Made by a program: the position numbers and the translations under genes
Notes under the pieces: generated by a model
Told to the model about the DNA's origin: nothing
Database searches by the model: none
The model's input: only the letters and a program-made list of their open reading frames with translations
IMG/VR virus record: IMGVR_UViG_3300014204_000143
Source: a virus
Taxonomy: Duplodnaviria > Heunggongvirae > Uroviricota > Caudoviricetes
Strand: one strand, 5' to 3'
DNA: 64,000 nt
In this document: positions 420-35,747 of the stretch, in pieces
Layout: each line of letters begins with the position of its first letter
Position numbering within the stretch: the first letter of the stretch is position 1

Positions 420-3275
420 ATGGCTACACTTTATTGGTACGGTGGTTCAGGAAATTTTAGTTCAGCATCAGGTCACTGGAGTACAAACTCTGGCAATGTT
501 CCTGCGGCTGACCACGTAGCACCAACATCAACAGATGATGTTATTTTTGATACTTCAAGTTCTGTAGCAGAAGCTGCTTATACTGTAACTATTGATGCAA
601 CTGCTAATTGTCAGAACTTTACAATGGATGGACCAAGTGCCACTGATGCCACTAAAGTAACTTGGGCTGGAAGTTCCACATTAAATATTTATGGAAATAT
701 TAATTTGAGTGGAGGTACGGCAGGAATTACTTCAACATATAGTGGTGGAATAAATATGGCCGCCACTAGTGGAACAAAAACTATTGATTTTAATTCTGTT
801 ATTCATCTAGGTCGTTTGTTGTTTGGTATATACGGTAGTGACTCCGCTACTTTTCAATTATCCAGAGATATTGAATTAGCATTTGTAGGTGGTGCTTCAT
901 CTTATTTTGGGTTAGATTATGGAGCGTTTGATGCTAATGGAAAAACGGTTACTCTTAATATCTCCTCTACGGATGGTATTAGAGGTCCAATAACATTTTA
1001 TAATTTAATTTTACTAGGGGTTGCAAGAAATGACAACAAAGTAACTTTAAATTCTAATATAACAGTTTCTAATACCCTAACAATAACTGGAGGTTCCGCT
1101 ATTAACCGTATTTTAGTGGAATCTAATACAATTGGAACTTCTAGAACGATAACTGCAGCTGCCATCTCAATCTCTAATGCCGATTTCCAAGATATTACTG
1201 GTGCTGGTGATGCAACTTGGGATATGTCTGCTATTACTGGGGGTTCTGGTAATTGTGGTGGAAACTCAATGAAAGCATTGGGTGATGCTGCCTTTACTAC
1301 CGCAGATACTTGGTACTGGCATGCTGATACTGGTAATGTTTCAGACTACACAAAATGGTATACAGAAACTAATGGTGGTGGCTCACAAATGGCTTCCACC
1401 TTAGTTCCACTACCTCAAGATACCTTAAGATTTGATGACAGTTCTTTTAATAGTGGTTCACAAACGATAACTCAGAACATGCCTCGTATTGGAAGTATTG
1501 ATTTTACAGGAGCGACTAATACACCCACATTTACAACCTCAACAGTGGCTTCAGTGTTTGGTTCTATTACCTTAATAAGTGGGATGACTTTGACGGCTTC
1601 AACTCAGGTATATACTTTTGAAGGAAGAAACAGTTATTTTTTAACAAATGCAGGAAAATCTTGGGGAAAAGCAATTATAATAAACGCCCCAAATGGTTCA
1701 TTAACATTAAAAGATGATTACAATTCTATTGCTTCAATAACTTTGACTAACGGTACTTTTAGTGCAGTAGATGGTGCTATAAATTCAAATGTTACTTTGA
1801 GTGCACTTTTATCAAATAATACTAATACTGGAAGAACACTTACAATGGGTTCTGGATTATGGACATTTTCTACAGAAGCAGTGAGTTTTGTTTTAATAAA
1901 TGCTACCAATCTTACTTTTACTTCTACTACCTCAACAATAAAACTTACAGCAGTTTTGACTGGTAATAGATTTTTTAGTGGAGGAGGATTAACTTTTGGA
2001 AACTTTTGGAATGCGACTACTGGTGCATATTCAATAATAATGTCAACTTCTGATTATTTCAACGACTTTAAAATAGACGCTGGTAGAGAAGTTAATTTTA
2101 CAAACTCAACAACAACAACTGTAAACACATTTACTGCTTTAGGAACATCTGGTTCACATATAGTAATTCATAACACTTCAGGAACAACTCACGCTACTCT
2201 TACTAAAGCAGGTGGGGGATTAATAACTGGTTGTGATTACATAGACATTCAAGAAATGACAGGGAGTCCTATTTCTACTTGGTATATAGGTTCGAATTCT
2301 ACTGACACTGGAAGCACTTGTACAAATATTTATTTAGAAAATACACCAACAACAACGTCAAGTAGTTCTAGTACATCAAGTTCAACTTCAAGTTCTACTA
2401 GCTCATCAACCTCAAGTTCAACGTCTAGCTCGACAAGTAGTTCTACAAGTTCTAGCACATCTAGTTCGACCTCAAGCAGTACATCTAGTTCAACATCAAG
2501 TAGCACTAGCTCATCGACTTCAAGTTCAACAAGTTCTTCGACTTCAAGTTCAACAAGTAGCTCGACTAGTTCTTCAACTTCAAGTTCGACTACTAGTTCT
2601 TCAACTTCGTCAAGTACGTCTAGTTCGACTTCAAGTTCTACAAGTTCTTCGACTTCAAGTTCTACGTCTAGCTCAACATCTAGTTCTACAAGTTCTTCAA
2701 CTTCGTCAAGTACGTCTAGTTCTACTTCAAGTTCTACAAGTTCTTCAACTTCAAGTTCTACGTCTAGTTCAACATCTAGTTCTACTAGCTCATCGACTTC
2801 AAGTTCTACGTCTAGTTCAACTAGTTCGACTTCAAGTTCTACTAGTTCTTCGACTTCAAGTTCTACGTCTAGCTCAACATCTAGTTCTACTTCAAGCTCT
2901 ACAAGTTCTTCAACCAGTAGTTCTACGTCTAGTTCAACTTCAAGTTCAACGTCTAGTTCGACTTCAAGCTCAACGTCTTCATCTACGAGTAGTTCTACTA
3001 GTTCATCAACTAGTTCTAGCACGTCTAGCTCAACATCTAGCTCAACTAGCTCATCAACCTCGAGTTCAACGTCTAGTTCAACTAGTTCAACATCTAGTTC
3101 GACTAGTAGTTCGACTAGTTCTTCAACGTCTAGTTCAACATCTAGCTCAACTAGTTCTTCAACTTCAAGTTCAACGTCTAGTTCGACGAGTTCTTTGCCT
3201 ATGGAATTTGGATTAACTCATCCATCTGGAAGTATAGGAATATTTACTCTTTATGGAAGCAAACCAAGATATTAA
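420..3275 (+). CDS. Putative tail fibre/adhesin. The N-terminal ~640 aa are Gly/Ser/Thr/Asn-rich and probably beta-rich; the C-terminal ~285 aa are near-perfect (STSSS)n.
   Basis: 951-aa ORF. Its composition and size fit phage fibre proteins. It is immediately followed by more structural-like genes. Confidence 0.55.
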   Translation: MATLYWYGGSGNFSSASGHWSTNSGNVPAADHVAPTSTDDVIFDTSSSVAEAAYTVTIDATANCQNFTMDGPSATDATKVTWAGSSTLNIYGNINLSGGTAGITSTYSGGINMAATSGTKTIDFNSVIHLGRLLFGIYGSDSATFQLSRDIELAFVGGASSYFGLDYGAFDANGKTVTLNISSTDGIRGPITFYNLILLGVARNDNKVTLNSNITVSNTLTITGGSAINRILVESNTIGTSRTITAAAISISNADFQDITGAGDATWDMSAITGGSGNCGGNSMKALGDAAFTTADTWYWHADTGNVSDYTKWYTETNGGGSQMASTLVPLPQDTLRFDDSSFNSGSQTITQNMPRIGSIDFTGATNTPTFTTSTVASVFGSITLISGMTLTASTQVYTFEGRNSYFLTNAGKSWGKAIIINAPNGSLTLKDDYNSIASITLTNGTFSAVDGAINSNVTLSALLSNNTNTGRTLTMGSGLWTFSTEAVSFVLINATNLTFTSTTSTIKLTAVLTGNRFFSGGGLTFGNFWNATTGAYSIIMSTSDYFNDFKIDAGREVNFTNSTTTTVNTFTALGTSGSHIVIHNTSGTTHATLTKAGGGLITGCDYIDIQEMTGSPISTWYIGSNSTDTGSTCTNIYLENTPTTTSSSSSTSSSTSSSTSSSTSSSTSSSTSSSTSSSTSSSTSSSTSSSTSSSTSSSTSSSTSSSTSSSTSSSTSSSTSSSTTSSSTSSSTSSSTSSSTSSSTSSSTSSSTSSSTSSSTSSSTSSSTSSSTSSSTSSSTSSSTSSSTSSSTSSSTSSSTSSTSSSTSSSTSSSTSSSTSSSTSSSTSSSTSSSTSSSTSSSTSSSTSSSTSSSTSSSTSSSTSSSTSSSTSSSTSSSTSSSTSSSTSSTSSSTSSSTSSSTSSSTSSSTSSSTSSSTSSSTSSLPMEFGLTHPSGSIGIFTLYGSKPRY
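2356..3195 (+). repeat. In-frame tandem repeat with a 15-nt period encoding (STSSS)n. Synonymous codons are shuffled between units.
   Basis: Direct reading: units such as agt tct acg tct agt, agc tca aca tct agt and so on. The protein repeat is perfect while the DNA repeat is degenerate. The same repeat type occurs at 1-290 and 5060-5225. Confidence 0.9.
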
Positions 3276-3276
3276 T

Positions 3277-3379
3277 AGCTAGTTTATCCCGCTGGGTTAG
3301 CATTAGTTATTTACAACTAGTTTATCCCATTGGGTTGACGTTAGTTATTTATAACTAATGTTATAATTAATAAATAAAG
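3277..3379 (+). promoter_or_regulatory. Two tandem copies of a ~38-bp element (TTTATCCC-N3-TGGGTT-N4-TTAGTTAT) followed by an extended -10 (TGTTATAAT at 3359-3367), ~20 nt upstream of ATG 3388
   Basis: Seen directly. The same element plus TGTTATAAT recurs at 11933-11991, upstream of ATG 12017. Confidence 0.45.
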
Positions 3380-3387
3380 TAAAAAAA

Positions 3388-4788
3388 ATGATAACAATTA
3401 GAGCCGACAATCTTATTCTTACAAAAAACTCTCCATATTCGTATTTGAATACCAATTATATTGCAGGTGTCACAGATATGGTGGTTGTTAATTGGATTGA
3501 TTTTAAACCAGATGACTACGTTTTAATTGGAGAATGGGGTTCAGAAAACACAGAAATTGTTCAAGTATCTTCTATAAAGGGGTCTACAAATACAATTACC
3601 CTTAAGGTTGCAAGTAAATTCTCTCATGCTGAAAGTACAAAAGTAACCATTATTAGATATAATATGGTGTTGTTTTATCACACAACAACTACCACATTTT
3701 CTACTGGAACTCACGTTAGACAAAAATCATATCTTGGAAATGATACTACTCAATTTGATATAACTAATCCAGCAGGAACAACATTTAGATATACTTGGGA
3801 CGGAACAGGAACTAATCCATTAATTGCAGACTTCGCAGTAATCGGAAATTCGGTTTATATTTCTGCTCAAAACTTTAATGCTAGCAATAATGGAACATTT
3901 GTTATAACAGGAAAAGGAACTAATTATTTTGAAGTTACTAATGCTTCTGGTGTAATTGAATCTAATAAAACAATTGGAACTGGTTCGGTTGCTATTAAAT
4001 CAGATAGACTTGCAATTGCCTCTGATAGTCAATTTACTGATATTTTTGATGATACTTATACAACTGGATATGGTTGGTATTTATTTTATAACTCTACCAC
4101 TGATACTGTAACTCAACAAAGTAATTATATCCCCTATAGTGGATTTGAAGAAGACTCAACCAAGAGTGTTCTCGACAGATTCTTTGATATTCTCTCTAAC
4201 TCTGAACAGAAACTTATTACAACTGATATGGCCTACTCGTGGATGAATGAGGGTTATTCTAAAATATATAATGCTCTCGGACTAGTTAATAAAGAATATA
4301 ACTCACCAAGTTCAGTTACAATCACAACTACTTCTGGAACAGCTGAGTATCTTATTTCTACTTATATGACAGATTTTGCAGATATTATTTCTGTTTATTG
4401 TGGCACTGAAGATAACGAAGTTGGAAATATATCACTAGACAAAATAGATGGTTGGAATTCCGAAACCGACAACACTGTTAAATATTTTATTCGAGGGAAT
4501 TATATTGGTTTTTCTCCAGTTCCAGCGGCGGCAACTGCTTATACAATTCGCTATGCCACGAAGTCAGCAACGGTCTCAAGCTATATTGATGAATTAAATT
4601 TACCAGATGGAAGTTTCTACTGCGTGACTGACTGGATGCTTTTTAGAGCCAGTATGAAGGCTAGTAGTATTGATGGAGCAATGCACAAAAACTTATTTGA
4701 TGAAGCTGTTAAGGTAATGCAATTAGTTTCTCACAAAAGAGACGCTAATCTAGATAGTTGGGGAATTGCTAATAACGCTAACGTTTAA
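3388..4788 (+). CDS. Structural (tail-fibre/baseplate-like) protein carrying one copy of the 'FDITNPAGTTFRYTWDGTG' repeat domain
   Basis: 466-aa ORF. Residues ~120-200 match the repeat domain found six times in ORF 6762..11708. Preceded by the promoter-like element. Confidence 0.5.
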   Translation: MITIRADNLILTKNSPYSYLNTNYIAGVTDMVVVNWIDFKPDDYVLIGEWGSENTEIVQVSSIKGSTNTITLKVASKFSHAESTKVTIIRYNMVLFYHTTTTTFSTGTHVRQKSYLGNDTTQFDITNPAGTTFRYTWDGTGTNPLIADFAVIGNSVYISAQNFNASNNGTFVITGKGTNYFEVTNASGVIESNKTIGTGSVAIKSDRLAIASDSQFTDIFDDTYTTGYGWYLFYNSTTDTVTQQSNYIPYSGFEEDSTKSVLDRFFDILSNSEQKLITTDMAYSWMNEGYSKIYNALGLVNKEYNSPSSVTITTTSGTAEYLISTYMTDFADIISVYCGTEDNEVGNISLDKIDGWNSETDNTVKYFIRGNYIGFSPVPAAATAYTIRYATKSATVSSYIDELNLPDGSFYCVTDWMLFRASMKASSIDGAMHKNLFDEAVKVMQLVSHKRDANLDSWGIANNANV

Positions 4789-4790
4789 TT

Positions 4791-5234
4791 ATGGCAGGTA
4801 GTAAAACAAAAAACTCTCAACGACTTACAATTCAATACTTCGAAGGTGTCAACGCTCAGGTTGGAAATAACTTATCTAAAACAACCGAACTCAGGCACGT
4901 CGAAAACGCCAGAAGTAATAAAATTGGAATCATCGAGAAGCGGACTGGTAAAACTTTAACAGGAGATGATGTGGATACATTAAGTGTCTACTCCTTGTTT
5001 TATTTTGATAACGCTGGAGCAACAAATACGGGACTCTATATGGTGATAGATTTCAATAATAGTACAACCACCTCATCGACTTCTTCAAGCACTTCAAGTT
5101 CAACTACGTTTACAAGTTCAACAAGTAGTTCTACTTCGTCTAGTACGTCATCGAGCACGTCTAGTTCGACTACCTTTACAAGTTCAACTTCATCGTCAAC
5201 ATCTTCATCAACTAGTTCAACAACTACTTTATAA
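4791..5234 (+). CDS. Small structural-module protein with a C-terminal STSSS-repeat tail
   Basis: 147-aa ORF. The C-terminal ~50 aa are STSSS/TTFTSS repeats. Tightly coupled to its neighbours. Confidence 0.45.
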   Translation: MAGSKTKNSQRLTIQYFEGVNAQVGNNLSKTTELRHVENARSNKIGIIEKRTGKTLTGDDVDTLSVYSLFYFDNAGATNTGLYMVIDFNNSTTTSSTSSSTSSSTTFTSSTSSSTSSSTSSSTSSSTTFTSSTSSSTSSSTSSTTTL

Positions 5235-5237
5235 AAT

Positions 5238-6761
5238 ATGTCAGCAAAATTATATTATTTAAATACATCAGGAGTTTGGACATTAATGACAGACCCAGAT
5301 TTGGCTGGTCTTGCTAGTGCTAGAGTCGACACAACGGTCGCTGAGGGGTGTTGCTTTATGGTAAACGGAACAAGTAACAACCTCTACATTATGGCAACTG
5401 GAACGACTGTAGTGCCTTCTACGACCGCTACAGGGCATCTGTACAACTCTCCAAAAGCAAGAAAGATAAACTACTATAAAGATAGACTCTACCTCGGAGA
5501 CTATACCGTTGGTTCAATTAGATATAAAAATGGAATTGCACTCTCTTCGAATCCAATGGGAATCCTCTCGCTTATAAATGAGGATGTTACCCCATCAGGT
5601 TCAACGGTTATAAAAGTAACCGATACAAAATATATTAGAACGACTGATTTGTTAGAAGTCTACAGAGGTTCTGTTAAAATAGCAACTTTAACGGTAACTA
5701 AAAAAACAGAAAGTTCTATTACGGCCACAGTTGTATTTGAAATAACTGTCCCAGCAACTACTACATTATTAAGTGCTGACGAACTCTGGGTAAGTGGAAC
5801 TTATAGCGGAACCAGATTGTTTAGATGGTGCGATAGATTTGCGAGTGGTGTTGATGTAAAAGAATATGACAGTTTTAGAATTACTTGTGACCAAAACGAA
5901 AGTATAAAAATGTTAGTTAATATCGGCGATGTTATGATTATTGGAACTGATAATAGTTTAGCCGCCTGGAACGGAACCAATCTTCAAAACTATGATATGG
6001 GAATCGGGTGTGTCAGTGAGAATGGTTATGTTAAACACGGTTATCTTTTCTTTATTCACTATACGGGTATCTATAGAACTTCAGGAGAAAGTCCTCAATT
6101 AATTTCTGATAAAATTAAACCATATATTGATGGAGCAACTAAAAGCGGACTAGAAAGTGCTTGTATGGGAAAGAAAGGTGACAGTATCTTTTGTTATATC
6201 GGAGATGTAACACTCTACAACGAAGATGGCAGTATCGATAAAACTCTAAGCAATGTTACTCTTGAATATAACTTACGACAAGGTAATTGGTTTGTACATA
6301 CTGGAATAGAAATAAAACAGTTCTGTACATACCCACAAGAAACTGATAGCACCTCACTTCAAATAATTGATAACAGTGATAGAAATATTTATGAATTCTT
6401 ATCTGGGGAAACCGACAATGGAACAGTGATTCCTTTTAGAATGGATACCGAAGAAATTAATTTTGGGGGTGAAATTGAAAGTTTATTCTCTTTAAGAAAA
6501 ATAATTTTAGAAGTTGAAAGAGGAACAAACATTCATATCTTTTTAAGTCTAGATGGTGGTGCTTGGTATGAATTAAAAACTACCGCCACTAAGGGAGCAA
6601 ATACAATCGCTATCACTGCCAAGGATGATAATAATAGTGCTCCTCCAAGATGTCGTCGTGTCAGAATAAGTATGCGACACAATGAAAAACAATTATGTAA
6701 AATAAGTAGACTCGCTTTAGAATATAGTTCAAGTATAGAAGAAGAAGAAAATAGAGCATAA
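5238..6761 (+). CDS. Hypothetical virion/tail protein
   Basis: 507-aa ORF inside the co-directional structural block. Its stop overlaps the next start (TAAATG at 6759-6764). Confidence 0.4.
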   Translation: MSAKLYYLNTSGVWTLMTDPDLAGLASARVDTTVAEGCCFMVNGTSNNLYIMATGTTVVPSTTATGHLYNSPKARKINYYKDRLYLGDYTVGSIRYKNGIALSSNPMGILSLINEDVTPSGSTVIKVTDTKYIRTTDLLEVYRGSVKIATLTVTKKTESSITATVVFEITVPATTTLLSADELWVSGTYSGTRLFRWCDRFASGVDVKEYDSFRITCDQNESIKMLVNIGDVMIIGTDNSLAAWNGTNLQNYDMGIGCVSENGYVKHGYLFFIHYTGIYRTSGESPQLISDKIKPYIDGATKSGLESACMGKKGDSIFCYIGDVTLYNEDGSIDKTLSNVTLEYNLRQGNWFVHTGIEIKQFCTYPQETDSTSLQIIDNSDRNIYEFLSGETDNGTVIPFRMDTEEINFGGEIESLFSLRKIILEVERGTNIHIFLSLDGGAWYELKTTATKGANTIAITAKDDNNSAPPRCRRVRISMRHNEKQLCKISRLALEYSSSIEEEENRA

Positions 6762-9700
6762 ATGACTCAAAAAAATTACAATTCAATAGATAATCCCTAC
6801 GATAGTTTTTTAAATCGTACCGATGCTGGAGCGTCAACCGTTGTTAATAGTGGTCAGGAATATGGAGGGACAACTTTTACCGATAGTGGAAATGGTGGTT
6901 CGGCTAGTCCCAATGGTTCTCCAGATGTTTCTAGTCCTAATGATGTTTCTGGGGGTTCGATTCAAGGTTCAAGTTTTCAAAGTATCTGGTTAAAGGACTG
7001 GATTAAATCAAGAAATTACAAACCGAAATCTGTCGGTTTTTATATTGACGGTAAAACTGGTTACGCTGAGTTTGTGAATGTTTATGTGAGTGGTAACATT
7101 CAAGCTTTGTCTGGTTTGATTGGTGGATTTACAATTGGAGCGACAAACTTATCGGCAACCTCTGGTGGAAATACTACAATTGTGTCTAGTGGCTCAACTG
7201 CCTTTAGTGCTGGACCAACTGGTGCTCCAACTTTTTATGTTACTCAGGCTGGAGTTTTAAATGCAACTGGGGCGATTATTTCTGGAACATTAACTGCCAC
7301 AACTGGTTATATTGGAGGTTGGTTAATTAATGCAACTAATTTATCGGCAACTGGAATAATCTTAGACTCTCTAAATCAGCAAATTAAAGTTGGTGCTACT
7401 GACCCAATTATAATTGATGGTTTATTAAAAGAAATTGAAAGTAGTAATTATGTTTCGGGTGCTTTTGGTGCTGGATTCCACTTAGATAGTAATTTATTTG
7501 AAGTTGGTAATATTTCGTGTCGAGGGATGATACGAACTTCTGTATTTCAAAAAGATTTAATTAATGTGATGGGTGGAAGTTTTGTTGTTCTTGATGGTGA
7601 TATTTTAGATACAACGATGACTGCACTTGACACCGCAACTATTACAACCAAAGGAACGGTCAATTTTTCAATCAATGATATATTAAGAATTAAAGAAGAT
7701 ATTGACGATGAATGGTTTAGAGTTACAAACGTTTCTGGACATCCAACTTATGTTGTCACAAGAGACTTGGCTGGAATGTATCCATCAAATACAAATCCAT
7801 GCTGGACAAAGGGATCAACTATTGTAAATTATAGACAGAGTGGAGATGGTGGAGTTTTTATGACAGCAACAGAAACGGATGCACCTTATCTTAGTATTTT
7901 TGACCATGCAGGTTCTCCGTGGACTACGATTAATACTAGACTTAGACTTGGTAATTTAAACGGATTTTTAGGTTACTCTTCTGACTTATATGGAATTGCA
8001 ATTGGAGAAACCAATTCATACTTAAAATATGATACCGACAATGGATTAAGAATTAAAGGAGATATTACAATTACAGGGGGGAATGCTTCTGTAACATTTT
8101 ATGAATCAACTGAACCAGTATCTGGAATGAAGGCTGGTGATTATTGGGTTGATTCAGATGACAATTCTCTTCATGTATATCAGGGAGGTGTATGGGTACT
8201 TGTTGCCGCATCGGGAGTTAAAGTTTTTTCTGCTGAACCAACCACTCCTTATCATGTTGGAGATTTATGGGCAAGCGGAGTCTTTCTTAAAATATGTAAT
8301 CATGAACTACTAACTGGTGTTTATAATCCTTTAGACTGGAGTTATGCTACTGGATATACCGATGATACTGTAGCAAATTCTAAAATAAAAACGTTTATTC
8401 AAACAACAATTCCAACTTCTATTTCTGCTGGAGATTTGTGGATTGATTCCGATGATGGAAACAAACTTTATCGTGCAACTAATGCGGGGGATACAACAAT
8501 TGGTCCAACGGCGTGGGTAGTTGTTCCAATTGACTTTGCTAATATAAATGGTGCAACTAAACCAGAAAATAATGCTACCGTTGGAGCTACTTGGGGAACA
8601 AATCTTGTAAACATTCCAGGAACATTGGGAACTCCAACTGGAACTGGTTTGTTTCTTTCTTCCACTCATTTAGGTTTCTATGATGCTCCAAATTGGAAAA
8701 CATATATGGATAGTTATGGGAATTTTTATTTAGGAGGGACTTCTGGTAAATTACAGTGGGTTGCTGGAACAAATACTCTCACAATTACTGGTATTATAAA
8801 TGCCGATAGTGGAACAATTGGAGGATTTACTCTTGGTGCTGATTATATTCGTGATTCTGCTAATGGTGTTGGATTAGCATCAACTGTTAGTGGTGGAGAC
8901 GATGTTAGGTTTTGGGCTGGAGATACTTTTGCCAATAGAGATATTGCTCCATTTAGAGTTTATGAATCTGGTAATGTAGTTATGGAGAGAATCACAGCTT
9001 CAAATATTCAAGCATATGATGCTATTGTAGATATAAATGGTGGAGGAGACTATTATGATTTATATGGTGCAGTTTTAAATGGTGCTAAAAAGATATTTAT
9101 TAGAAACGGTGAATATATTTTGACTTCACAACTAGATATTGCACAAGAAAATGTAAAAATTGAAGGACAGTCTCGTGATAAAACAATCATAACTAGAGCA
9201 AGAGGTGGTAATAATATTTATTTTTTATTGGGTGATGGAACTACTCAATGGGACGTAACTAATCCAGCAGGAACAACATTTAGATACACATGGAATGGTC
9301 AAGGTTATGAACCAGATTTTTCTAAACTAAAAGATGGCTATAATATATTGATAGAATCAAGTAGTGGAACTAGTTATCTTGATTATGATAATACTGGAAA
9401 TTTTTGTATTACTGGAACTGGAACTACTTATTTTGAAATTACTAATTCTTCTGGTGTTGTAGAAACTGGAAAAACAATTGGACTTGACGATACTAGTTAT
9501 ATAAAGATAAGACCAAAAGCTATATATGGTTATGCTACTGGTGGTGGTGGTGGAAACCTAACAGAATATACAGTTACTAATCCAGTTGGAACAACGTGGA
9601 GATACACCTATACTGGAGTTGGAGGAGACCCAGATATAACTACTAGAGTTAAGGTTGGAATGTTAGTTGATATGATTGATTCTTCATTTTCTACTAATAA

Positions 9701-11708
9701 TAAAGGGCTATATACAGTAACTGGAATTGGAACAGATTATTTTGAAGTTGACAAAGTCGCAGGAACGGCAGAAAGTAAATATTGTTCAGGCATTTATTTA
9801 TATTCTAGTGTTATTGGTGATTCCACATCACAGTTTGATATTACCTGTCTTGATAGTGTTAAAAAAATATTTAGATATACCTGGGACGGGACTGGAACAG
9901 ACCCAAACATATTACAGTTGACTCATGGTGAGAATATCTATATAAAAGCACAAAATTTTTCTTCAGTGAATAATGGTCATTTTGTAATTTTAAATCCAAC
10001 ATCAACTACTTTTGATATTCATAATGAGATTGGAGTTGCAGAAAATAATAAAACAATTGGTACGGGATATATTATAAAAGTTAATACTTATCTTGGAGAC
10101 TCTTCAACTCAGTTTGATATAACAAATCCATCAACTGGACTGTGGAGATACACTTGGGACGGAACAGGAAAGAACCCACACATAGAAGAACTCGTATCTG
10201 TTTATGATACTATGTATATTAATGGTTCAACTTTTGCATCAAATAATAGGGGAAAAAGAGTTTATGTTTATGCCGTTGGAACTGATTATTTTGAAATTAA
10301 AACAGAGACAGGAACGGTTGAATCTAATAAAATTCTTGGAACTGGATATATTGAACACGTGAAAGGATATGTAATAAATAATTGGGGAGAAAAAACTGAA
10401 GTTAGCAATCTCAAATTTATAGAATCTGGAAACTATCGTTATGGTTGTTTGGTTTCTTTAAATAGCTTAAGTATTCATCATACCGATTTTGATACGCAAG
10501 AATCTCAAAGCTCTTTAATGCCATGTATAGTTGATAGGAGTGGTAGTCTAACATTAAAAAATTCTTATCTTATTAGTTATTCTAATTGTGTAGTTAGATT
10601 TCCCTACTCAGGGAATGAAACTGTTATAAGCGAAAATCATTTTGAATCTTATTATGGTTCAAGTGTTTATGAAACAATGACTTCATATAGAATAGGTGGA
10701 AGTTCTTCTAGATTTGATATAACTAATACTGCTGGAGATACATGGAGATATACATGGGATGGTACAGGGACTGACCCTGGAATATCTACTGGCTGGAGTT
10801 TTTATGCAGTTATTGTTTATGCTGAAAATTTTACAGGAAGAAATAATGGAATCTTTCAAATAACAGATTCTGGGCTTAATTGGTTTGAAGTTACAAACAT
10901 AAATGGATATGCAGAAAACAACAAAACAATTGGAGAAGGTTATATAGAAAAAATGATTTCTGGAGGTTTTTATAAGTTTGTTTTTGAAAAAAATTATTGT
11001 TATCGTGGTATGTATAATTCTTCCAGTAGTTATATTGCAAATATTCCAGGGGCATTAAATATTGTTGGAGACGGAACAGTTATAAGAGATAATACATTTT
11101 TTGCACAACCTTCAAATTATACTCCAGCAGTCAGACTATTTGGAGTTAATAGTATTGTCACTGGAAATAAATTTAATAGTTATCCTGAAAACTATTCTGC
11201 AAATGGTGGTCTTGGTATTCATATTACAGCCAAAGGCAGTTGTGTTATAGAGAATAATATATTTAATGCCCTAAGCATTGGAATTCTTTTAGATTATTAT
11301 GAAACAGACAATGGTTGTGGTCATGCATCTACAAGCAACAATCTGTTTAATTTTGTGGTTGGAGAAACTAATGGTTATGGTATATCAATTCTTTCCCCAA
11401 TTTCAAAAATGGTAATTTCTGGAAATCATCAATATTGTGGAGCTTCTTTAATTGACCAACAGTATGGTTCTTCTAATTTAACAGTAATAAATAATATTGT
11501 TACTAATTCTGCCGCAGAAGCCTTTTTAATGCAAAGTCTAACATATTCTGTCTTTAGTAATAATCAAACAAAAGATTGTTATCTTGGATATGACATTTCT
11601 GGAGCAGATTATTGTACGATTTTGGGCAATATATCTCAGGGTAACGCAAATTCAGATGACGTTGCTGGTATTACAAACAGCGAAACGGCTCACAATTTAT
11701 TCTTATAA
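6762..11708 (+). CDS. Giant tail fibre/tailspike. It has six ~95-aa repeat domains (9230-10956) and a C-terminal right-handed parallel beta-helix-like region (NNIFNALSIGIL..., ISGNHQYCG..., ~10960-11708).
   Basis: 1648-aa ORF. The internal motif FDITNP-x-GT-x-RYTWDGTG...NNG-F...GTDYFE...NKTIG-GY recurs six times. The C-terminal periodic motifs are typical of pectate-lyase-like tailspikes. Confidence 0.6.
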   Translation: MTQKNYNSIDNPYDSFLNRTDAGASTVVNSGQEYGGTTFTDSGNGGSASPNGSPDVSSPNDVSGGSIQGSSFQSIWLKDWIKSRNYKPKSVGFYIDGKTGYAEFVNVYVSGNIQALSGLIGGFTIGATNLSATSGGNTTIVSSGSTAFSAGPTGAPTFYVTQAGVLNATGAIISGTLTATTGYIGGWLINATNLSATGIILDSLNQQIKVGATDPIIIDGLLKEIESSNYVSGAFGAGFHLDSNLFEVGNISCRGMIRTSVFQKDLINVMGGSFVVLDGDILDTTMTALDTATITTKGTVNFSINDILRIKEDIDDEWFRVTNVSGHPTYVVTRDLAGMYPSNTNPCWTKGSTIVNYRQSGDGGVFMTATETDAPYLSIFDHAGSPWTTINTRLRLGNLNGFLGYSSDLYGIAIGETNSYLKYDTDNGLRIKGDITITGGNASVTFYESTEPVSGMKAGDYWVDSDDNSLHVYQGGVWVLVAASGVKVFSAEPTTPYHVGDLWASGVFLKICNHELLTGVYNPLDWSYATGYTDDTVANSKIKTFIQTTIPTSISAGDLWIDSDDGNKLYRATNAGDTTIGPTAWVVVPIDFANINGATKPENNATVGATWGTNLVNIPGTLGTPTGTGLFLSSTHLGFYDAPNWKTYMDSYGNFYLGGTSGKLQWVAGTNTLTITGIINADSGTIGGFTLGADYIRDSANGVGLASTVSGGDDVRFWAGDTFANRDIAPFRVYESGNVVMERITASNIQAYDAIVDINGGGDYYDLYGAVLNGAKKIFIRNGEYILTSQLDIAQENVKIEGQSRDKTIITRARGGNNIYFLLGDGTTQWDVTNPAGTTFRYTWNGQGYEPDFSKLKDGYNILIESSSGTSYLDYDNTGNFCITGTGTTYFEITNSSGVVETGKTIGLDDTSYIKIRPKAIYGYATGGGGGNLTEYTVTNPVGTTWRYTYTGVGGDPDITTRVKVGMLVDMIDSSFSTNNKGLYTVTGIGTDYFEVDKVAGTAESKYCSGIYLYSSVIGDSTSQFDITCLDSVKKIFRYTWDGTGTDPNILQLTHGENIYIKAQNFSSVNNGHFVILNPTSTTFDIHNEIGVAENNKTIGTGYIIKVNTYLGDSSTQFDITNPSTGLWRYTWDGTGKNPHIEELVSVYDTMYINGSTFASNNRGKRVYVYAVGTDYFEIKTETGTVESNKILGTGYIEHVKGYVINNWGEKTEVSNLKFIESGNYRYGCLVSLNSLSIHHTDFDTQESQSSLMPCIVDRSGSLTLKNSYLISYSNCVVRFPYSGNETVISENHFESYYGSSVYETMTSYRIGGSSSRFDITNTAGDTWRYTWDGTGTDPGISTGWSFYAVIVYAENFTGRNNGIFQITDSGLNWFEVTNINGYAENNKTIGEGYIEKMISGGFYKFVFEKNYCYRGMYNSSSSYIANIPGALNIVGDGTVIRDNTFFAQPSNYTPAVRLFGVNSIVTGNKFNSYPENYSANGGLGIHITAKGSCVIENNIFNALSIGILLDYYETDNGCGHASTSNNLFNFVVGETNGYGISILSPISKMVISGNHQYCGASLIDQQYGSSNLTVINNIVTNSAAEAFLMQSLTYSVFSNNQTKDCYLGYDISGADYCTILGNISQGNANSDDVAGITNSETAHNLFL

Positions 11709-11715
11709 TAATAAT

Positions 11716-11934
11716 ATGGAAAAAAAATACATTAAAGATGGTGAAAAAATTTATGAAGTTAATAAAGAAATAGATAAAATATCCGAACTAAAAGAAATTG
11801 ATAAGAAAATAACCAAATTAAACGAGTTAGAGGCAATGAGAATTAAAGAGATTCATGACAGTTATGTGACTAAAATAGAACTTCTCCAAAGTAGAAAAAC
11901 TGAATTAATAAATACTAGAGAAACCCCATTATAG
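11716..11934 (+). CDS. Small coiled-coil protein (~72 aa)
   Basis: ATG at 11716 (MEKKYIKDGEKIYE...). The track ORF 11584..11934 shares this frame, but its upstream part overlaps the 1648-aa gene, so the internal start is preferred. Confidence 0.35.
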   Translation: MEKKYIKDGEKIYEVNKEIDKISELKEIDKKITKLNELEAMRIKEIHDSYVTKIELLQSRKTELINTRETPL

Positions 11935-11991
11935 TATAACTAATGTTATCCCCTTGGGTTGGCGTTAGTTATACATAACTAATGTTATAAT
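11933..11991 (+). promoter_or_regulatory. Single copy of the TTATCCC...TGGGTT...TTAGTTAT element plus extended -10 TGTTATAAT (11983-11991), upstream of ATG 12017
   Basis: Near-identical to 3316-3379. Palindromic arms ATAACTAA/TTAGTTAT flank the element. Confidence 0.45.
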
Positions 11992-12016
11992 TAACATATA
12001 AAGATAAATAAAATTT

Positions 12017-14680
12017 ATGGCTCAAAGATATTTTGCATGGTTTACTGATAACAAGGGAGTACTACAGTCAATGAGTGCTGATACTAAAGAAGAGGCACTG
12101 GCTGACGCAAATTCTAGGGGTTGGACACTTACTTCGGGTCAATATGGTGGCTGGCCAACAAAACCAACTAGTCCGACTCCAATAACTCAACCTCAGGTTC
12201 AACCAAAACCAATTGTTTCTAATCCTATAAATCAAGAAGAAACTCAAGTAACTCCTGAGTATGTTTATGATAACATTAACTCTGTAATGAATAAAAACGC
12301 AGTTAATCATTTATTCAAACAATATTACGGTCGTGATGCTACTCAGACAGAATTAGACTATTGGGAAAAGAAAACGACAGGAAGTCTAGAAGATAAATTA
12401 AGACCAAACGCTTATAAGTTCCCTAACGCACCAATTCATACAACTTCATATTCTGCTGATGGTAGACCAGCAACATCTAGTGGCGAAACCATAGTTCCTC
12501 CACCAGTTCAAGAAACAGAACCAACTCAACCAGAAGCAACTCAACCAATTATACAACCTCAAGACCCAACAGAAGTAGCCCAGTCTAATTTTAATTTTTC
12601 TGGTAGAACCGCTCTTGTTAAGTTTAGCGACGACCCTACTCCTAGTGGTGATGGCGACTCTAGCACTGTTTGGTTATTCGATACAATTACTAAAACATAT
12701 CGACCATTTCTTTCGATGGATGCTATTAATGCTATTTATGGAGATGATGCTCCAGAGTATATAGCTAACATAGAAACTCTCCCAACTACTGTTTTAAATA
12801 ATGATACGTGGAAAGGTTCGTTCTTGAGTGAAACTGAAGGATTTGATTCCGAAGGACTTGCTGGCGGAAAAAATATTTATGATGTTCTCTCTGTCTCTGG
12901 AGTTAAAACTATTTATAATAAAGTAAAAGACTATAACCTAGAGTCTTGGGCTGGTCAATTTGTTGACTTGATATTTTCAGAAGCCAAGGATAAAGGTGCT
13001 ATTACCGAAGAACAATTTAAAAAGTATTTAGAAGACCCAACACAACTAGCAGAATATATCAATGCAATTGCTTATGGTGGTTATACCGCCAAAGATGTTC
13101 TCGCAGATATGAAAGCTAAAGAATTAGGATTAAATATTAAACCAATCTCTTCTACTATACCAGCCGATAAATACGCTACAACGACTGAAGGACTGGAAGC
13201 AAAAAATAATAATCAAATTCAAACAGATGTCTCAACTTTAGGTTTAGACCAGAATTTATTTAATAATAAAGTTTCAGATATACCGATTGCATCTTTAACG
13301 AGCCTAATGCCAAACCTTGACTGGAATAGTGAAGAATTTAAAAATGCTGCTGAAGAAATTCAAGCCTCTTGGTATGACATTCAGTCACAACTTGCTTCGG
13401 CAACTAATGAACAAGAAAAGGCTGTCGCTGATGCTAACTTTGCTAAATTTAATTCTGATTTAGAAAAAACTTATGGAATCAAACTTAGCGATAACGCTGA
13501 TGAAGCTTGGGGACAACTTGAAACAATGTTTTCAGACTACGGTAAGGCTGGACTAGGTAACTCTGGTTTATTTAATGAAGCTATGGATACTTATACCGCT
13601 GGGGTTAGGCAGGCTGGTGATAGATTAAGAGATGAAAAAGCCGATAGTCAAACCACTGAAGAAATTAACTATCTATTAAAAAGTGGAACACCAGAACAGA
13701 TTGCTGCCTACGAAGCCTCTCATCCAGGTTTTGCCGACAAATATGGACTTAAACCAAGTGCTGAACAGCTTGCGTGGTGGAGTGATTCGTCTTTGGCAGA
13801 GAGATACCCAGATATGTCAGTCGAAGAACGAAATAAAATTAAAGGAATGATAATTGATGAAAATGGAAATTATAGGAGTAATCTTTATCAAACTCTTTAT
13901 ACAAATCAAAATAATCTCGCTGACCAGAAGAGAACGTATCAAGAAGGAAAATTAGCAGAACAGAGACAACAAGAAGCCAACAAAGTTGCTGATGTTTCTA
14001 CTGGAGCTACTATTCTGTATGACCAAAATATTCAAAATATGTTAGATTCAAATTCTTATGATTTAACTCCTGGAACGGTAACTCAAGATACAACGACTTC
14101 GCAAACTCCATTCTCAACTTCTTCGACTCCGCCAACAGGGGCAACATTAATTTCTGATAAAACAGAATATGATTCTCTGGTTGCTAATGGACTTACTGAG
14201 TCTCAGATATGGAGAGACCCAAATAGCGACAAAATTTATCGATTACCGACATCTACTACACCCACACAAACTACAACATCAACCACAAGTTCGTTAGGAA
14301 GACTTTTGGGTCCAACAGAATATGCACAATTAAGAAATCAATATGGTGTTTCTGATTCTAATTTTTCTCAATATTTTACTAGAGATGGAACAAATATCTA
14401 TTTAAAACCAACAGCACCAACTTCTTCAACACCTTCAACAAGTGCTGTTACTTCTGCGGCTGCCAACATTTCAAATTCTTTATCAGGAACAACAACTCCG
14501 ACAACAACCACTTCTAGTAGTAGTTCGTCTCCTTATTCAGAATATATGGGTCAATTTGGAACAACTAGAGTTTTTGGTTCAAGTAGAGAAGCTGTTGAGG
14601 CTGAGGCAAGAGCTGGTGGATTAAGTTTAACTGGTGCAACGTATAAAGGATATAATAATGGTACTTGGAGTTTAATTTAA
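12017..14680 (+). CDS. Large hypothetical virion protein with Pro/Thr/Gln-rich linkers
   Basis: 887-aa ORF with low-complexity P/T/Q-rich segments. Lies in the structural block behind the promoter-like element. Confidence 0.4.
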   Translation: MAQRYFAWFTDNKGVLQSMSADTKEEALADANSRGWTLTSGQYGGWPTKPTSPTPITQPQVQPKPIVSNPINQEETQVTPEYVYDNINSVMNKNAVNHLFKQYYGRDATQTELDYWEKKTTGSLEDKLRPNAYKFPNAPIHTTSYSADGRPATSSGETIVPPPVQETEPTQPEATQPIIQPQDPTEVAQSNFNFSGRTALVKFSDDPTPSGDGDSSTVWLFDTITKTYRPFLSMDAINAIYGDDAPEYIANIETLPTTVLNNDTWKGSFLSETEGFDSEGLAGGKNIYDVLSVSGVKTIYNKVKDYNLESWAGQFVDLIFSEAKDKGAITEEQFKKYLEDPTQLAEYINAIAYGGYTAKDVLADMKAKELGLNIKPISSTIPADKYATTTEGLEAKNNNQIQTDVSTLGLDQNLFNNKVSDIPIASLTSLMPNLDWNSEEFKNAAEEIQASWYDIQSQLASATNEQEKAVADANFAKFNSDLEKTYGIKLSDNADEAWGQLETMFSDYGKAGLGNSGLFNEAMDTYTAGVRQAGDRLRDEKADSQTTEEINYLLKSGTPEQIAAYEASHPGFADKYGLKPSAEQLAWWSDSSLAERYPDMSVEERNKIKGMIIDENGNYRSNLYQTLYTNQNNLADQKRTYQEGKLAEQRQQEANKVADVSTGATILYDQNIQNMLDSNSYDLTPGTVTQDTTTSQTPFSTSSTPPTGATLISDKTEYDSLVANGLTESQIWRDPNSDKIYRLPTSTTPTQTTTSTTSSLGRLLGPTEYAQLRNQYGVSDSNFSQYFTRDGTNIYLKPTAPTSSTPSTSAVTSAAANISNSLSGTTTPTTTTSSSSSSPYSEYMGQFGTTRVFGSSREAVEAEARAGGLSLTGATYKGYNNGTWSLI

Positions 14681-14688: not shown

Positions 14689-15255
14689 ATGGACTTACCA
14701 CAAAATACACAATATAAAAGTGATTATGTTTCTAAACTGATGCCTCTTGTTAGTGCGATTACGGCTAAAGGAAAACAAACATCACAACCAACCCAGCAAA
14801 CTTCATTGCCTCGTATTTCGGGTACACCAAGTTCACTCTCTCAATTTCCTATCACAACTCCTTATGGTGGAAGTACAAACTATGAACCAGGTGGAACTCA
14901 CGGGGGGATAGATATAGGAACACCAACAGGAACTTCACTTCCAGCAATTCAAGGAGGAACAGTGACGGATGTTGTTACTGGAAAAGGATGGACTCCAAAA
15001 ACACCTTCTTATGGGAATACAATTACGGTAAAAGACAATGAGGGAAATTTATGGAGATACTCACATTTGTCAGACGCTTACGTTAAGGTTGGCGATACAG
15101 TTAATACTGGTCAAGCAATTGGAACAAGTGGTTATTCAGGTTCAACATATAGTGCAAAAAATCCGAATAGTCCTGGTCCGCACGTAGATATAAGGTTGCT
15201 CAAAAACTTATCTGGAAGGTATGTTGAAGAAAATCCCCAGCAATATATACGGTAA
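14689..15255 (+). CDS. Peptidase M23 (LytM-like) domain protein, a candidate virion-associated peptidoglycan hydrolase
   Basis: HxxxD motif (THGGIDIG) followed by Gly-rich beta strands and ...GPHVDIR, as in M23 endopeptidases. Confidence 0.55.
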   Translation: MDLPQNTQYKSDYVSKLMPLVSAITAKGKQTSQPTQQTSLPRISGTPSSLSQFPITTPYGGSTNYEPGGTHGGIDIGTPTGTSLPAIQGGTVTDVVTGKGWTPKTPSYGNTITVKDNEGNLWRYSHLSDAYVKVGDTVNTGQAIGTSGYSGSTYSAKNPNSPGPHVDIRLLKNLSGRYVEENPQQYIR

Positions 15256-31858: not shown

Positions 31859-31906
31859 AGTTTAACATACTAAAAACACCTTGTCAAGTAGTAAACTGTG
31901 GACAAC
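31859..31906 (-). promoter_or_regulatory. Sigma70-like promoter on the minus strand (TTGACA-17 nt-TAAACT) with an upstream TTGTCCACA (DnaA-box-like) site, driving ORF 31145..31831
   Basis: Reverse complement of 31859-31887 reads TTGACAAGGTGTTTTTAGTATGTTAAACT. The element is near-identical to 47029-47076 and, inverted, to 47451-47497. Confidence 0.5.
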
Positions 31907-32619
31907 TATTTTCCAGCAACCAAATTACCAGCCCTTAAAAGTGAATTAAATGTTCCTGCATCAGTCCACCATCCCCCCAATACATGACTCCCCATAGATC
32001 CATTTTTAACAAAGTAATTATTAACATCGGTAATTTCTAATTCACCTCTGCCTGATGGTTTTAGCGTTTTGATTACATCCCATACTTCTTTGTTGTAGAA
32101 ATATAAACCAGTGACAGCTAAATTACTTTTTGGGTCTTCTGGTTTTTCTTCAATACAGACAACTTTGCCATCTTCATTTATCTCAGCTACTCCGAATCTT
32201 TGTGGGTCATCAACTATCTTTAAAAAAATATTGGCGGAGTCGGATGTGCTTTGAAAATTTCTAACAAACCCAGCAATGTCATCCTCATAAATGTTATCCC
32301 CAAGAATAACAGCGACATCTTCGTCTCCAGCAAAACGCTCACACAGTCCCAACGCTTCTGCAATCCCTCCAGCCTCTTCTTGAACCTCATAAGAAAACTT
32401 AGCACCGAATGATTTACCAGAACCAAGCAAGTCTAAAAAGTTACCAGCGTTCCCCTTACCAGAAACAATCATGATTTCATTTATCCCTGACTTTGTTAGA
32501 GTTTCGATTGGATAATAAATCATCGGTTTGTCATACACTGGCAGTAAATGCTTGTTAAAAATACGAGTGCATTCACCCAGCCTACTACCAGTCCCTCCTG
32601 CGAGAATAATTCCCTTCAT
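31906..32619 (-). CDS. rmlA: Glucose-1-phosphate thymidylyltransferase (RmlA-like sugar nucleotidyltransferase, short form)
   Basis: MKGIILAGGTGSRL...LLPVYDKPMIYYPIETL..., ...EEKP..PKSNLAVTGLYFY and ...GELEITD.. match the RmlA family along the whole length. Confidence 0.8.
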   Translation of the reverse strand: MKGIILAGGTGSRLGECTRIFNKHLLPVYDKPMIYYPIETLTKSGINEIMIVSGKGNAGNFLDLLGSGKSFGAKFSYEVQEEAGGIAEALGLCERFAGDEDVAVILGDNIYEDDIAGFVRNFQSTSDSANIFLKIVDDPQRFGVAEINEDGKVVCIEEKPEDPKSNLAVTGLYFYNKEVWDVIKTLKPSGRGELEITDVNNYFVKNGSMGSHVLGGWWTDAGTFNSLLRAGNLVAGK

Positions 32620-33307: not shown

Positions 33308-34216
33308 TTATTTAATTAAGTCTTCTATATCTATTCCGTGAGTTTGATACCACCAATCTCTATCTTTATCTTTATTGTTTTCTTTTAATCTATTGTATTT
33401 TAACAATATTTTATTTTGCCTATTAATTTCTTCTTTAAAAAATGGAATATCAAAATCATTGTTACTTTTATATAACTCTCTCAATATTTTTCTTAATACG
33501 TATCCTTGTTTAGTGTTACTTGGTTTATATCCAGCCTCAATTATTTTTAAAGCACATTCTTTTAATAAATCTATTTTATTATTTTTTATAATTCCATTAA
33601 CAATACTATCTAGTCTTTCATATCCAAATCCAACATCTATACATGTTCCAAGTGGATTAACAATATTACCAATTTCTATTCCTTTGTGATAAAATTCTGT
33701 ACAATATCCCCCAATATTACCATCTGACCAAAGACACTCGTTATCAATTTTAACTTTTATTTTATGTTTTTTATAAAAGTTATCCCATTCTTTTTTATCT
33801 TGATGAACAGTTGCGTGGTCTATTTTAATGCCAATTCTTTTCATAAATTCAACAAAAAAATCAATTGCCATTTCTACCGACATATCCCTAAAAGAAAACA
33901 ATCCAATCATATTAAAATATGCTAAATGAGTTCCATCTCCAATTTCATTAAAATCATTTAACCTAATACAACTTTGGATATTAGCTCTTGTGCCATAATA
34001 ATTAGTATCAATAAAATTACTTTTAAACTGTTGCATTCCAGCTGGACAAAATAAGGTTGTAGTATCATAAGGAGAAACAGAATTATTAACACTAAATGGT
34101 ATGTTGTTTTCTCTACAAAGTTCACTATAGATTTTTATTATATCCATATTCTTAATTAAGTCTTCTATTTTTTTCGTTAAGAAGCATTTGTTTAATCTTA
34201 CCATCATCAAAGGCAT
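33308..34216 (-). CDS. Alanyl-tRNA synthetase catalytic-core homologue. It is truncated and lacks the tRNA-recognition, editing and C-Ala domains.
   Basis: Block-by-block match to the AlaRS N-terminus: SPYDTTTLFCPAGMQQFK (DPTLLFTNAGMNQFK), QSCIR (QRCVR), HLAYFNMIGLFSFRD (HHTFFEMLGNFSFGD), ECLWSDGNIGGYCTEFYH ([20 protein letters not shown]), IEIGNIV (IEIWNIV) and IDVGFGYERL (VDTGMGLERI). Confidence 0.65.
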   Translation of the reverse strand: MPLMMVRLNKCFLTKKIEDLIKNMDIIKIYSELCRENNIPFSVNNSVSPYDTTTLFCPAGMQQFKSNFIDTNYYGTRANIQSCIRLNDFNEIGDGTHLAYFNMIGLFSFRDMSVEMAIDFFVEFMKRIGIKIDHATVHQDKKEWDNFYKKHKIKVKIDNECLWSDGNIGGYCTEFYHKGIEIGNIVNPLGTCIDVGFGYERLDSIVNGIIKNNKIDLLKECALKIIEAGYKPSNTKQGYVLRKILRELYKSNNDFDIPFFKEEINRQNKILLKYNRLKENNKDKDRDWWYQTHGIDIEDLIK

Positions 34217-35519: not shown

Positions 35520-35747
35520 TTATAATTTATTTAAATCAATGTCGTCTAGCTTGACTCCGAGTTTAATAAAGTGTCTAATTTTTTTTACACGTTCATAGTC
35601 CTTAATCCTATCAAACACATAATTAAGTCCGATAATTGATTTTGGTAGTAAGAGTCCCATTCTAACATAAATCTTAATCCTCTCAGAAGACACTCCACAT
35701 TTTTTTGCTAATTCTTTAGTTGTCATGCAGTCATCAACATCTAACAT
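35520..35747 (-). CDS. Small HTH DNA-binding protein
   Basis: MTTKELAKKCGVSSERIKIYVRMGLL is an HTH of the MerR / excisionase-like type. Confidence 0.4.
   Translation of the reverse strand: MLDVDDCMTTKELAKKCGVSSERIKIYVRMGLLLPKSIIGLNYVFDRIKDYERVKKIRHFIKLGVKLDDIDLNKL

Follow-up and report, generated by a model that had tools for sequence, protein, structure and literature searches.

What kind of element separates the genes at the two intergenic sites that precede virion gene blocks in a phage known only from its DNA? The stretch analysed, hereafter the window, comprises 64,000 nt of a tailed phage (Caudoviricetes; IMG/VR record IMGVR_UViG_3300014204_000143) and is the reverse strand of a 92.7-kb metagenomic contig (ena:ERZ27247350:k141_1632479). 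Repeated elements lie in it at 3277-3379 and 11933-11991, and the initial annotation took them for activator-dependent late promoters. The sites at 3359 and 11983 are very probably extended -10 promoters of structural-gene operons, as comparison with related phages indicates. The explanation that we hold, by a small measure, to be probable is that each belongs to an extended -10 promoter module with phage-specific regulator sites, placed before tail or injection gene blocks.

The repeated elements are present as first observed. Three units containing TTATCCC (at 3284, 3322 and 11946) stand before structural genes. The longer sequence TTATCCCNNTGGGTT has exactly three exact matches, all on the + strand (3284-3298, 3322-3336 and 11946-11960); with up to two mismatches six matches are found where 1.3 are expected, a number that was never reached in 100 shuffles. 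The first locus is a tandem repeat with a 38-nt period and 2.1 copies (3279-3357; Tandem Repeats Finder), and between the 67-nt blocks 3322-3388 and 11946-12012 (family D18) the identity is 87%. Units A and B entirely fill the intergenic gap 3276-3387, which follows an open reading frame (ORF) at 420-3275, and unit C entirely fills the gap 11935-12016, which follows a 72-aa ORF (11716-11934) absent from the earlier account. The units and their boxes are as follows.

3277-3316, + strand: unit A, promoter-less upstream copy of the module, AGCTAG-TTTATCCC-GC-TGGGTT-AGCA-TTAGTTAT-TTAC
3313-3367, + strand: unit B, full module with the extended -10 at its end, AACTAG-TTTATCCC-AT-TGGGTTGACG-TTAGTTAT-TT-ATAACTAA-TGTTATAAT
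11935-11991, + strand: unit C, TATAACTAA-TGTTATCCCC-T-TGGGTTGGCG-TTAGTTAT-AC-ATAACTAA-TGTTATAAT
3284-3290, + strand: TTATCCC box of unit A, 78 nt 5' of the -10 hexamer
3322-3328, + strand: TTATCCC box of unit B, starting 40 nt 5' of the -10 hexamer (about -52 to -46)
11946-11952, + strand: TTATCCC box of unit C, starting 40 nt 5' of the -10 hexamer

Some details of the first description need adjustment. The actual spacing is TTTATCCC-N2-TGGGTT, so that the proposed N3 between TTATCCC and TGGGTT holds only when counted to GGGTT. The sequence said to be shared by all units is shared in general, except by the third unit, which reads GTTATCCC. In the tandem pair, both members of which had been described as promoter-like, a -10 comes after the second unit only, and the first is an upstream copy without a promoter.

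The promoter core was examined by comparison with homologues of the adaptor, the first gene behind unit B, and with about 85 related loci gathered from metagenomic phages.

3359-3367, + strand: extended -10 of unit B, TGTTATAAT, in the core ACTAATGTTATAAT at 3354-3367
11983-11991, + strand: extended -10 of unit C, TGTTATAAT, by sequence match
3374, + strand: predicted transcription start of unit B, an A 7 nt past the -10, based on 17 of 19 relatives
11998, + strand: predicted transcription start of unit C, based on the conserved A of the relatives
3335-3340, + strand: -35-like TTGACG of unit B, mis-spaced at 21 nt from TATAAT

TGnTATAAT is present in units B and C and in 19 of 19 relatives, and TGTTATAAT stands exactly 20 nt before the ATG at 3388 and 25 nt before that at 12017, within the 20-25 nt given earlier. 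When the upstream regions of the adaptor gene from these 19 distinct relatives were anchored on TATAAT, conservation was seen only at -8 to +5 and at +12. The preferred bases are A (18 of 19), C (17), T (19), T (18), R, T (19), G (19), any base and TATAAT (19 of 19); the A at +12, 7 nt past the -10, occurs in 17. Nothing is conserved in their -35 region, or anywhere upstream of -20. The consensus ACTTRTGnTATAAT has 27 exact matches in 879 kb, all 27 of them on the gene-sense strand; it often directly follows the upstream stop codon, and several loci carry two copies. Together, the gene-strand matches and the conservation in 19 relatives constitute strong comparative evidence for a real extended -10 promoter, and they bear out the promoter reading of the elements, since this core and its downstream A are the sole upstream conservation among the relatives. 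The core is inherited, and the whole clade of related SU10-like uncultivated phages has it at the same location. The starts predicted by this comparison are close to those suggested beforehand (about 3375 and 12000), and they would give leaders of 13 and 18 nt, without a terminator, after units B and C.

The -35 region was said to hold no hexamer. In wording this goes too far, as TTGACG of unit B and TTGGCG of unit C (11959-11964) resemble a -35; in substance it stands, as their distance of 21 nt from TATAAT is excessive for normal -35 action. Unit D, a further copy described below, has TTGACA at the same 21 nt, and a scan for -35/-10 pairs with 16-18 nt spacing does not list the sites of units B and C. 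Activator dependence had been deduced from the lack of a -35, and this deduction fails: the relatives use the same core right after a stop codon, with nothing conserved upstream. A perfect TGnTATAAT suffices for primary-sigma holoenzymes, with no activator needed. An activator requirement of the promoters in units B and C is thus unproven.

The association with structural genes that had been claimed holds in that the genes directly downstream are structural.

3388-4788, + strand: tail adaptor gene, 466 aa, first gene of the operon behind unit B (PF24175 SU10_adaptor, Pfam 3.2e-18)
12017-14680, + strand: 887-aa gene, first gene of the operon behind unit C, which includes an M23 peptidase

However, the core is not specific to such genes: as ACGAATGTTATA(A/C)T it also occurs 5' of replication-block genes, at 47098 and 48156.

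48113-48169, + strand: sister extended -10 promoter before the 48270 gene block, AATCAACGAATGTTATAAT, with a TTATCC box 51 nt upstream
47098-47111, + strand: sister promoter-like site ACGAATGTTATACT before the ORF at 47137, repeat family D15, core match

The leader past the 48156 promoter (48170-48269) contains nested inverted repeats, AATCAAC...GTTGATT around the -10 and, second, ACGCT..GCTGG...CCAGC..AGCGTTTTT; in its sequence it resembles an attenuator or a small structured RNA.

Around the core lies a shell of about 45 nt, present at three dispersed loci. Its most regular part is a palindrome, TTAGTTAT-NN-ATAACTAA, which is perfect at two positions and has two mismatches at a third.

3303-3320, + strand: imperfect operator-like palindrome TTAGTTAT-TT-ACAACTAG, 38 bp from the next palindrome
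3341-3358, + strand: perfect 8-N2-8 palindrome TTAGTTAT-TT-ATAACTAA, centre at about -24.5
11965-11982, + strand: perfect palindrome TTAGTTAT-AC-ATAACTAA, by sequence match

This 18-bp palindrome can be written TTAGTT-N6-AACTAA and spans -33 to -16. Its right half, ATAACTAA (-23 to -16), holds the family-conserved ACT box, and the palindrome can thus be read as an inverted duplication of part of the core. Within 70.6 kb, palindromes of the form TTAG[TA]T-N6-[AG]ACTA[AG] are found solely at these units, and clusters of at least three AACTAA/TTAGTT hexamers, alternating in orientation, solely at the three loci. The shell also has a CCC-N3-GGG dyad with its centre near -44. Each TTATCCC is preceded by AACTA(A/G)T(G/T), so that the box looks like a promoter copy with TATCCC in place of TATAAT. 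The proposal that TTATCCC and TGGGTT form a pair of half-sites is too simple: TTATCY behaves as a separate upstream box, TGGGTTGAC overlaps the mis-spaced -35-like hexamer, and the dominant palindrome at -33 to -16 had been overlooked.

Outside the window, some 6.5 kb upstream of it, there is a fourth copy, unit D (L086:133-185), with the sequence AAACTAATTTATCCTATTGGGTTGACATTAGATATTTATGACTAATGTTATAAT. It precedes a 75-aa ORF and the gene of an 889-aa protein (tailspike gene), homologues of which carry beta-helix domains, and its sequence is identical in an independent assembly. Between -61 and about +3, unit D shares 91% identity with unit B, and units B, C and D are mutually 87-91% identical over about the same interval; the flanks, including the genes next to unit D, are unrelated. 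None of the relatives compared, including the closest (L001, 68% adaptor protein identity), contains TTATCCC/TGGGTT or TTAGTTAT, and no exact match to TTATCCCNNTGGGTTNNNNTTAGTTAT turned up when collections of viral, metagenome and genome sequences were scanned. Within the collections scanned, the shell is private to this phage.

The TTATC[CT] box reaches further than the palindrome. It starts 40-41 nt 5' of the -10 in units B, C and D, in a head-gene promoter termed E (L091:4785-4878) and in two sigma70-type promoters, that is, in six cases, where shuffles give 0.54 and never more than four. The earlier suggestion that TTATCC recurs in other sequence families is thereby borne out, at a fixed position in other promoter classes. 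Promoter E consists of TTGTTAATCAACGAATGTTATCTC, 16 nt and TTGTTAATCAACGAATGTTATAAT; at its core (L091:4828-4851) a palindrome was looked for and not found, although the core itself is present.

The sigma70-type promoters form a class of their own, with three near-identical members at 31859-31905 (- strand), 47029-47075 (- strand) and 47451-47497 (+ strand) and with 17-nt spacers. Their pattern is TT(A/G)TCCACAG-N8-CTTGACAAGGTGTTTTT-N-TATAAT/TAAACT, which may also be written TTATCCACAG-N8-TTGACA-N17-TATAAT/TAAACT, the TTATC[CT] box being in the upstream block; one of them precedes a tRNA. The upstream block, TTATCCACA, equals the consensus of the bacterial DnaA box. Two of the copies point towards one another over the divergent region 47004-47500, possibly an origin or a control region regulated by DnaA. 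The reading of TTATCC as a DnaA box was set aside: just two exact TTATCCACA occur, both in paralogous promoters, and with up to one mismatch there is no enrichment (25 matches against 22 expected). The crAss-like phage phi14:2 has genes without Shine-Dalgarno sequences and tripartite sigma70-like middle promoters with a third upstream block, some of them before tRNA genes (bioRxiv 10.1101/2020.03.07.982082). The promoter TTATCCACAG-N8-TTGACA-N17-TATAAT before a tRNA in the window is like these by description. A crAss-like affiliation was considered and rejected, as no DFDxD RNA polymerase motif was found in the five largest proteins and no shared promoter motif in half of the phi14:2 genome.

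On the explanation that we favour, each element would be a promoter module for a tail or injection gene block. The working promoter would be ACTAATGTTATAAT, without a usable -35 and most likely read by the primary-sigma RNA polymerase of the host, with starts at about 3374 and 11998. The palindrome would have arisen when an inverted copy of the core's own box at -23 to -16 was added upstream. The shell sites would be bound, as DNA, by a dimeric regulator, probably phage-encoded, which would determine when or how strongly the tail genes are transcribed; activation seems somewhat likelier than repression, and unit A would provide a second set of sites 38 bp upstream. The sequence is compatible with either direction of control, and the perfect -10 argues that an activator is not strictly needed. 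Among the proteins examined, the sole clear DNA-binding regulator is the one already proposed as a candidate, which indeed matches a MerR-type winged helix-turn-helix (HTH) domain and may be the binder.

35520-35747, - strand: 75-aa MerR-type winged-HTH protein (PF13411, 3.6e-10)

The match (also PDB 4ua1, 3e-4) covers the N-terminal winged HTH alone, corresponding to residues about 5-66 of MerR and MtaN, and the protein is without the MerR dimerisation helix or effector domain.

Several points weigh against a module with regulator sites. The relatives use the core without conserved upstream sites, and the shell could be dispensable or repressive. Its absence even from the closest relative indicates that it is young, and recent duplication or gene conversion, instead of selection, could account for the identity of its copies. 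With four copies in all, three of them paralogous, the conservation statistics are weak. Promoter E has no palindrome, which shows that the shell is no general late-gene signal. Lastly, the 75-aa MerR-like protein is no more than a candidate binder, and the sigma specificity depends on the host, for which the hints are weak.

One precedent for such a module is phage P1, where the activator Lpa binds a 9-bp inverted repeat that is found in all 11 late promoters; positive control also governs the late genes in well-studied phages (PMC10695390). As in P1, a good -10 without a -35 is combined with a short inverted repeat just 5' of the -10, recurring at dispersed promoters. The differences are that the repeat has another sequence here (8-N2-8, centred at about -24.5), that it occurs at three loci instead of 11, that the head-gene promoter E lacks it, while in P1 it is at all late promoters, and that, judged by its sequence, the extended -10 requires no activator.

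An alternative which we consider unlikely is that the elements are constitutive extended -10 promoters and that the shell, without a regulatory role, is the residue of tandem and dispersed duplication. As a consequence, about 60 bp of identity at module boundaries would permit homologous exchange of tail and receptor-binding cassettes. This would be akin to the PeSLs of T4-like phages, which are small composite terminator/promoter sequences mediating indels (PMC4122927). It fits that in each unit arm 1 (AACTAATGTTAT) directly repeats the promoter-proximal segment, TATCCC standing in place of TATAAT, that promoter E shows the same pattern without a palindrome, and that the shell is missing in relatives. 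Unit C stands where L002 and L004 have merely 5-15 nt between genes, in effect no intergenic space, at the boundary of variable fibre genes and the conserved 887-aa/M23 block; no relative of more than 70% identity with a long contig was available for comparison. The likeness to PeSLs lies in the dispersed, near-identical cassettes of about 60 nt, with promoter and stem-loop, at module boundaries (B, C and D, 87-91% identical). However, the promoters of PeSLs are early ones, and the cassettes number in the tens and are found in hyperplastic regions, whereas here three or four copies precede structural genes, with the stem-loop upstream of the promoter. Moreover, TTATCY at an equal distance of 40-41 nt in sequence-unrelated promoter families is hard to obtain by decay of duplicates, and the perfect 8-N2-8 palindromes and alternating hexamer arrays resemble operators.

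A further possibility is one to which we give little weight. The TTATCY 'pseudo -10' and the multiplied AACTAA boxes would belong to a phage-wide promoter-recognition system acting across three otherwise unrelated promoter classes, and would form, with terminators placed just past some of the promoters, a Q-like or gp39-like switch for late-gene antitermination. TTATCY could then offer sigma or RNA polymerase a second place to dock, or it could be bound by a new phage transcription factor that acts on all classes. If true, such a system would concern SU10-like phages of uncultivated hosts, possibly Patescibacteria or Bacteroidota. The putative terminators in question are hairpins seen in unit D and four relatives. 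They come within 6-25 nt after the conserved promoter, start with (AU)GAAGAYAAAAU and end with 7-9 U.

L086:186-243 (about 6.4 kb upstream of the window start), L009:1338-1429, L012:9265-9345, L028:8800-8890 and L053:5694-5790: promoter-proximal hairpins

To judge by their form, these look like promoter-proximal intrinsic terminators before structural genes, which suggests antitermination or a small RNA. L003 has the same type of hairpin upstream of the promoter. The arrangement of the lambda Q type is not found at units B and C, which have no terminator after them; terminators were seen only after unit D and in L009, L012, L028 and L053. Another parallel is the Thermus phage P23-45, the middle and late promoters of which are of the extended -10 class (PMC3950348) and the gp39 protein of which displaces sigma region 4, antiterminates and is reported to read through intrinsic terminators (PMC3351154, PMC3950348). 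Both phages have TGnTATAAT-type promoters without a functional -35 before late or structural genes. In the present genome, -35/-10 promoters also occur (31859-31889, 47029-47059 and 47469-47497), so that a switch between classes is possible, and intrinsic terminators follow some promoters closely (unit D and the four relatives). In contrast to P23-45, no gp39-like protein was identified here, and the ACT at -20 to -18 and the dyad-rich shell are not described for that phage.

A role of the shell in RNA is also improbable. In a read-through transcript, arm 1, the CCC-loop-GGG and arm 2 could form a hairpin acting as a terminator without a U-tract, a processing site or a 3'-end stabiliser, after which the promoter would restart transcription. 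The + strand RNA of unit C folds at -25.9 kcal/mol (z = -5.8) and that of units A and B together at -29.1 kcal/mol (z = -4.1); these folds exceed those of the - strand, owing to G-U pairs, and every difference between units in the 3' arm is an A/G change opposite T. Relatives, too, carry true terminator hairpins beside the same promoter. On the other hand, hairpin stability is uneven across the units (-11.6, -7.3 for unit B, -22.0 and -5.2 for unit D, in kcal/mol), whereas the sequence blocks are invariant, unpaired positions included, and this favours protein sites at the DNA level over RNA. The phage uses canonical hairpin-plus-U8 terminators elsewhere, and the units match no Rfam family. 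Canonical terminators as such were rejected, as no U-tract follows the hairpins and a terminator scan does not call them.

We think it very unlikely that the core ACTTRTGnTATAAT (here TAATGTTATAAT) is a single-element promoter for a phage sigma factor without region 4. In phiEco32 (Kuravirus, SU10 group), middle and late promoters consist of the single element tAATGTAtA without a -35, with starts 6-8 bp downstream, and are read by the phage sigma gp36 (PMC8948821). The present virion module is related (adaptor, portal and capsid, with Pfam matches to SU10_adaptor, SU10_portal and SU10_MCP), its promoters have a single element with a predicted start 6-8 nt downstream, and there is a partial match, TAATGTTATA, in that TAATGT-T-ATA in the window resembles the phiEco32 element. 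The additionally conserved ACT at -20 to -18 is no classical sigma70 contact either. However, TAATGTTATA is one base longer than the phiEco32 element, the family consensus here is TTRTGnTATA, and the motif is a perfect primary-sigma extended -10. No gp36 homologue was found by phmmer or tblastn in 83.9 of the 92.7 kb of the contig (best E 0.09), and no sigma domain in about 60 proteins scanned with Pfam or PHROGs. The 152-aa protein at 60641-61099, earlier called sigma-like, has no sigma-domain match even at E<=10 and contains zinc ribbons only.

Promoters of the MerR type, with an over-long spacer and a dyad operator at which a phage MerR-like protein would untwist the DNA and so align TTGACR with the -10, are scarcely credible here: TTGACG, TTGGCG and TTGACA do lie 21 nt from TATAAT in B, C and D, the palindrome does fill 3341-3358 between TTGACG (3335-3340) and TATAAT (3362-3367), and a MerR_1 HTH protein is encoded at 35520-35747, but MerR-type spacers measure 19-20 bp and the 21 bp of B, C and D fall outside this range, the extended -10 makes a -35 unnecessary, TTGGCG of unit C is a poor -35, and the 75-aa protein is without the long dimerisation helix and the effector domain.

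The units are an ordinary kind of phage promoter element with some unusual details, and current ideas on phage late transcription are unchanged by them. If the model of a core promoter with added regulator sites is right, the consensus ACTTRTGnTATAAT, with a start 7 nt downstream, could be used for operon annotation in a widespread uncultivated SU10-like clade. The units would also be a compact case of a lineage that adds its own regulator sites onto an inherited core promoter, and the 18-bp palindrome and the TTATCCC-N3-GGGTT box would be defined DNA baits for the regulator.

The virion module is, by its protein matches, like that of the Escherichia coli podovirus SU10. Upstream of the window are an SU10/P22-type portal gene and an SU10-type capsid gene. 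The portal gene (L091:1416-4469) carries an intein (Pfam Intein_splicing/LAGLIDADG, weak), and behind the capsid gene lies a strong GC-rich hairpin (L091:7177-7313), GGGTGGTG-N11-CACCACCC, with TTATCCTAC before it. The operon behind unit C also holds the M23 peptidase gene (14689-15255) and genes for 623-aa and 1692-aa proteins. Other proteins encoded by the phage include GroEL, RtcB, RNA ligase, SbcCD, DnaB and primase. The phage has no near relative among cultured phages: neither megablast of 3200-12100 nor tblastn of the adaptor protein gave a match among 50,697 phage records. Single-protein locus searches in IMG/VR and a PDB profile search with the adaptor alignment gave none, PHROGs gave no informative match for the genes around unit D, and Rfam at the gathering threshold found only a tRNA in the whole window. 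No Shine-Dalgarno sequence was found before the genes, the leaders of which are A-rich; these leaders are weak hints of a Bacteroidota-like or Patescibacteria-like host. Similarly weak hints come from homologues of a glycosyltransferase and of the N-terminal domain on contigs binned to Patescibacteria.

The adaptor has an insertion in its N-terminal half (3746-3978), a domain of about 90 aa (…TQFDITNPxGTTFRYTWDGTGTDP…). This domain occurs at least four times in a 1648-aa protein (9241-9482, 9863-10178 and 10705-10934), with up to 80% nucleotide identity, and also on contigs binned to metagenome-assembled genomes of Patescibacteria, Peribacteria and Saccharibacteria. Several virion-region proteins contain long Ser/Thr-rich repeats with a 12-nt period (1-300, 2330-3200, 5060-5230 and L091:10001-13339). 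These adjoin four glycosyl-/methyltransferase genes, and more sugar-nucleotide enzymes are encoded at 31906-32619 and 57951-58826. The combination points to glycosylation of proteins on the virion surface.

A set of tRNA-related genes is found at 33308-34216 (- strand), 45341-45429 (- strand), 47569-47642 (+ strand), 51128-52132 (+ strand) and 61521-62900 (- strand). Its members are an alanyl-tRNA-synthetase-like fragment (PF01411, 7e-21), tRNA-Pro(AGG), tRNA-Met, an RNA ligase and RtcB, which suggests tRNA repair against host anticodon nucleases.

Two further repeats occur in the window. The repeat TTAGATGGCTATTTACCATCGGTTAATT..., which contains the inverted repeat GATGGCTATTTACCATC, is present in three copies at gene junctions of a - strand block of small ORFs (43028-43103, 43495-43570 and 44004-44079). 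The repeat TTTATCCCCTACTTAAATTTGAGGGGTTAA also has three copies (45739-45808, 60044-60113 and 60608-60677). On the - strand it forms a GC-clamped 5-bp hairpin in front of three - strand genes; the hairpin ends 8-9 nt short of their ATG, and its loop holds the stop codon of the upstream gene. It has TTATCCC...GGGTTA in common with the units, but in the opposite orientation relative to the genes.

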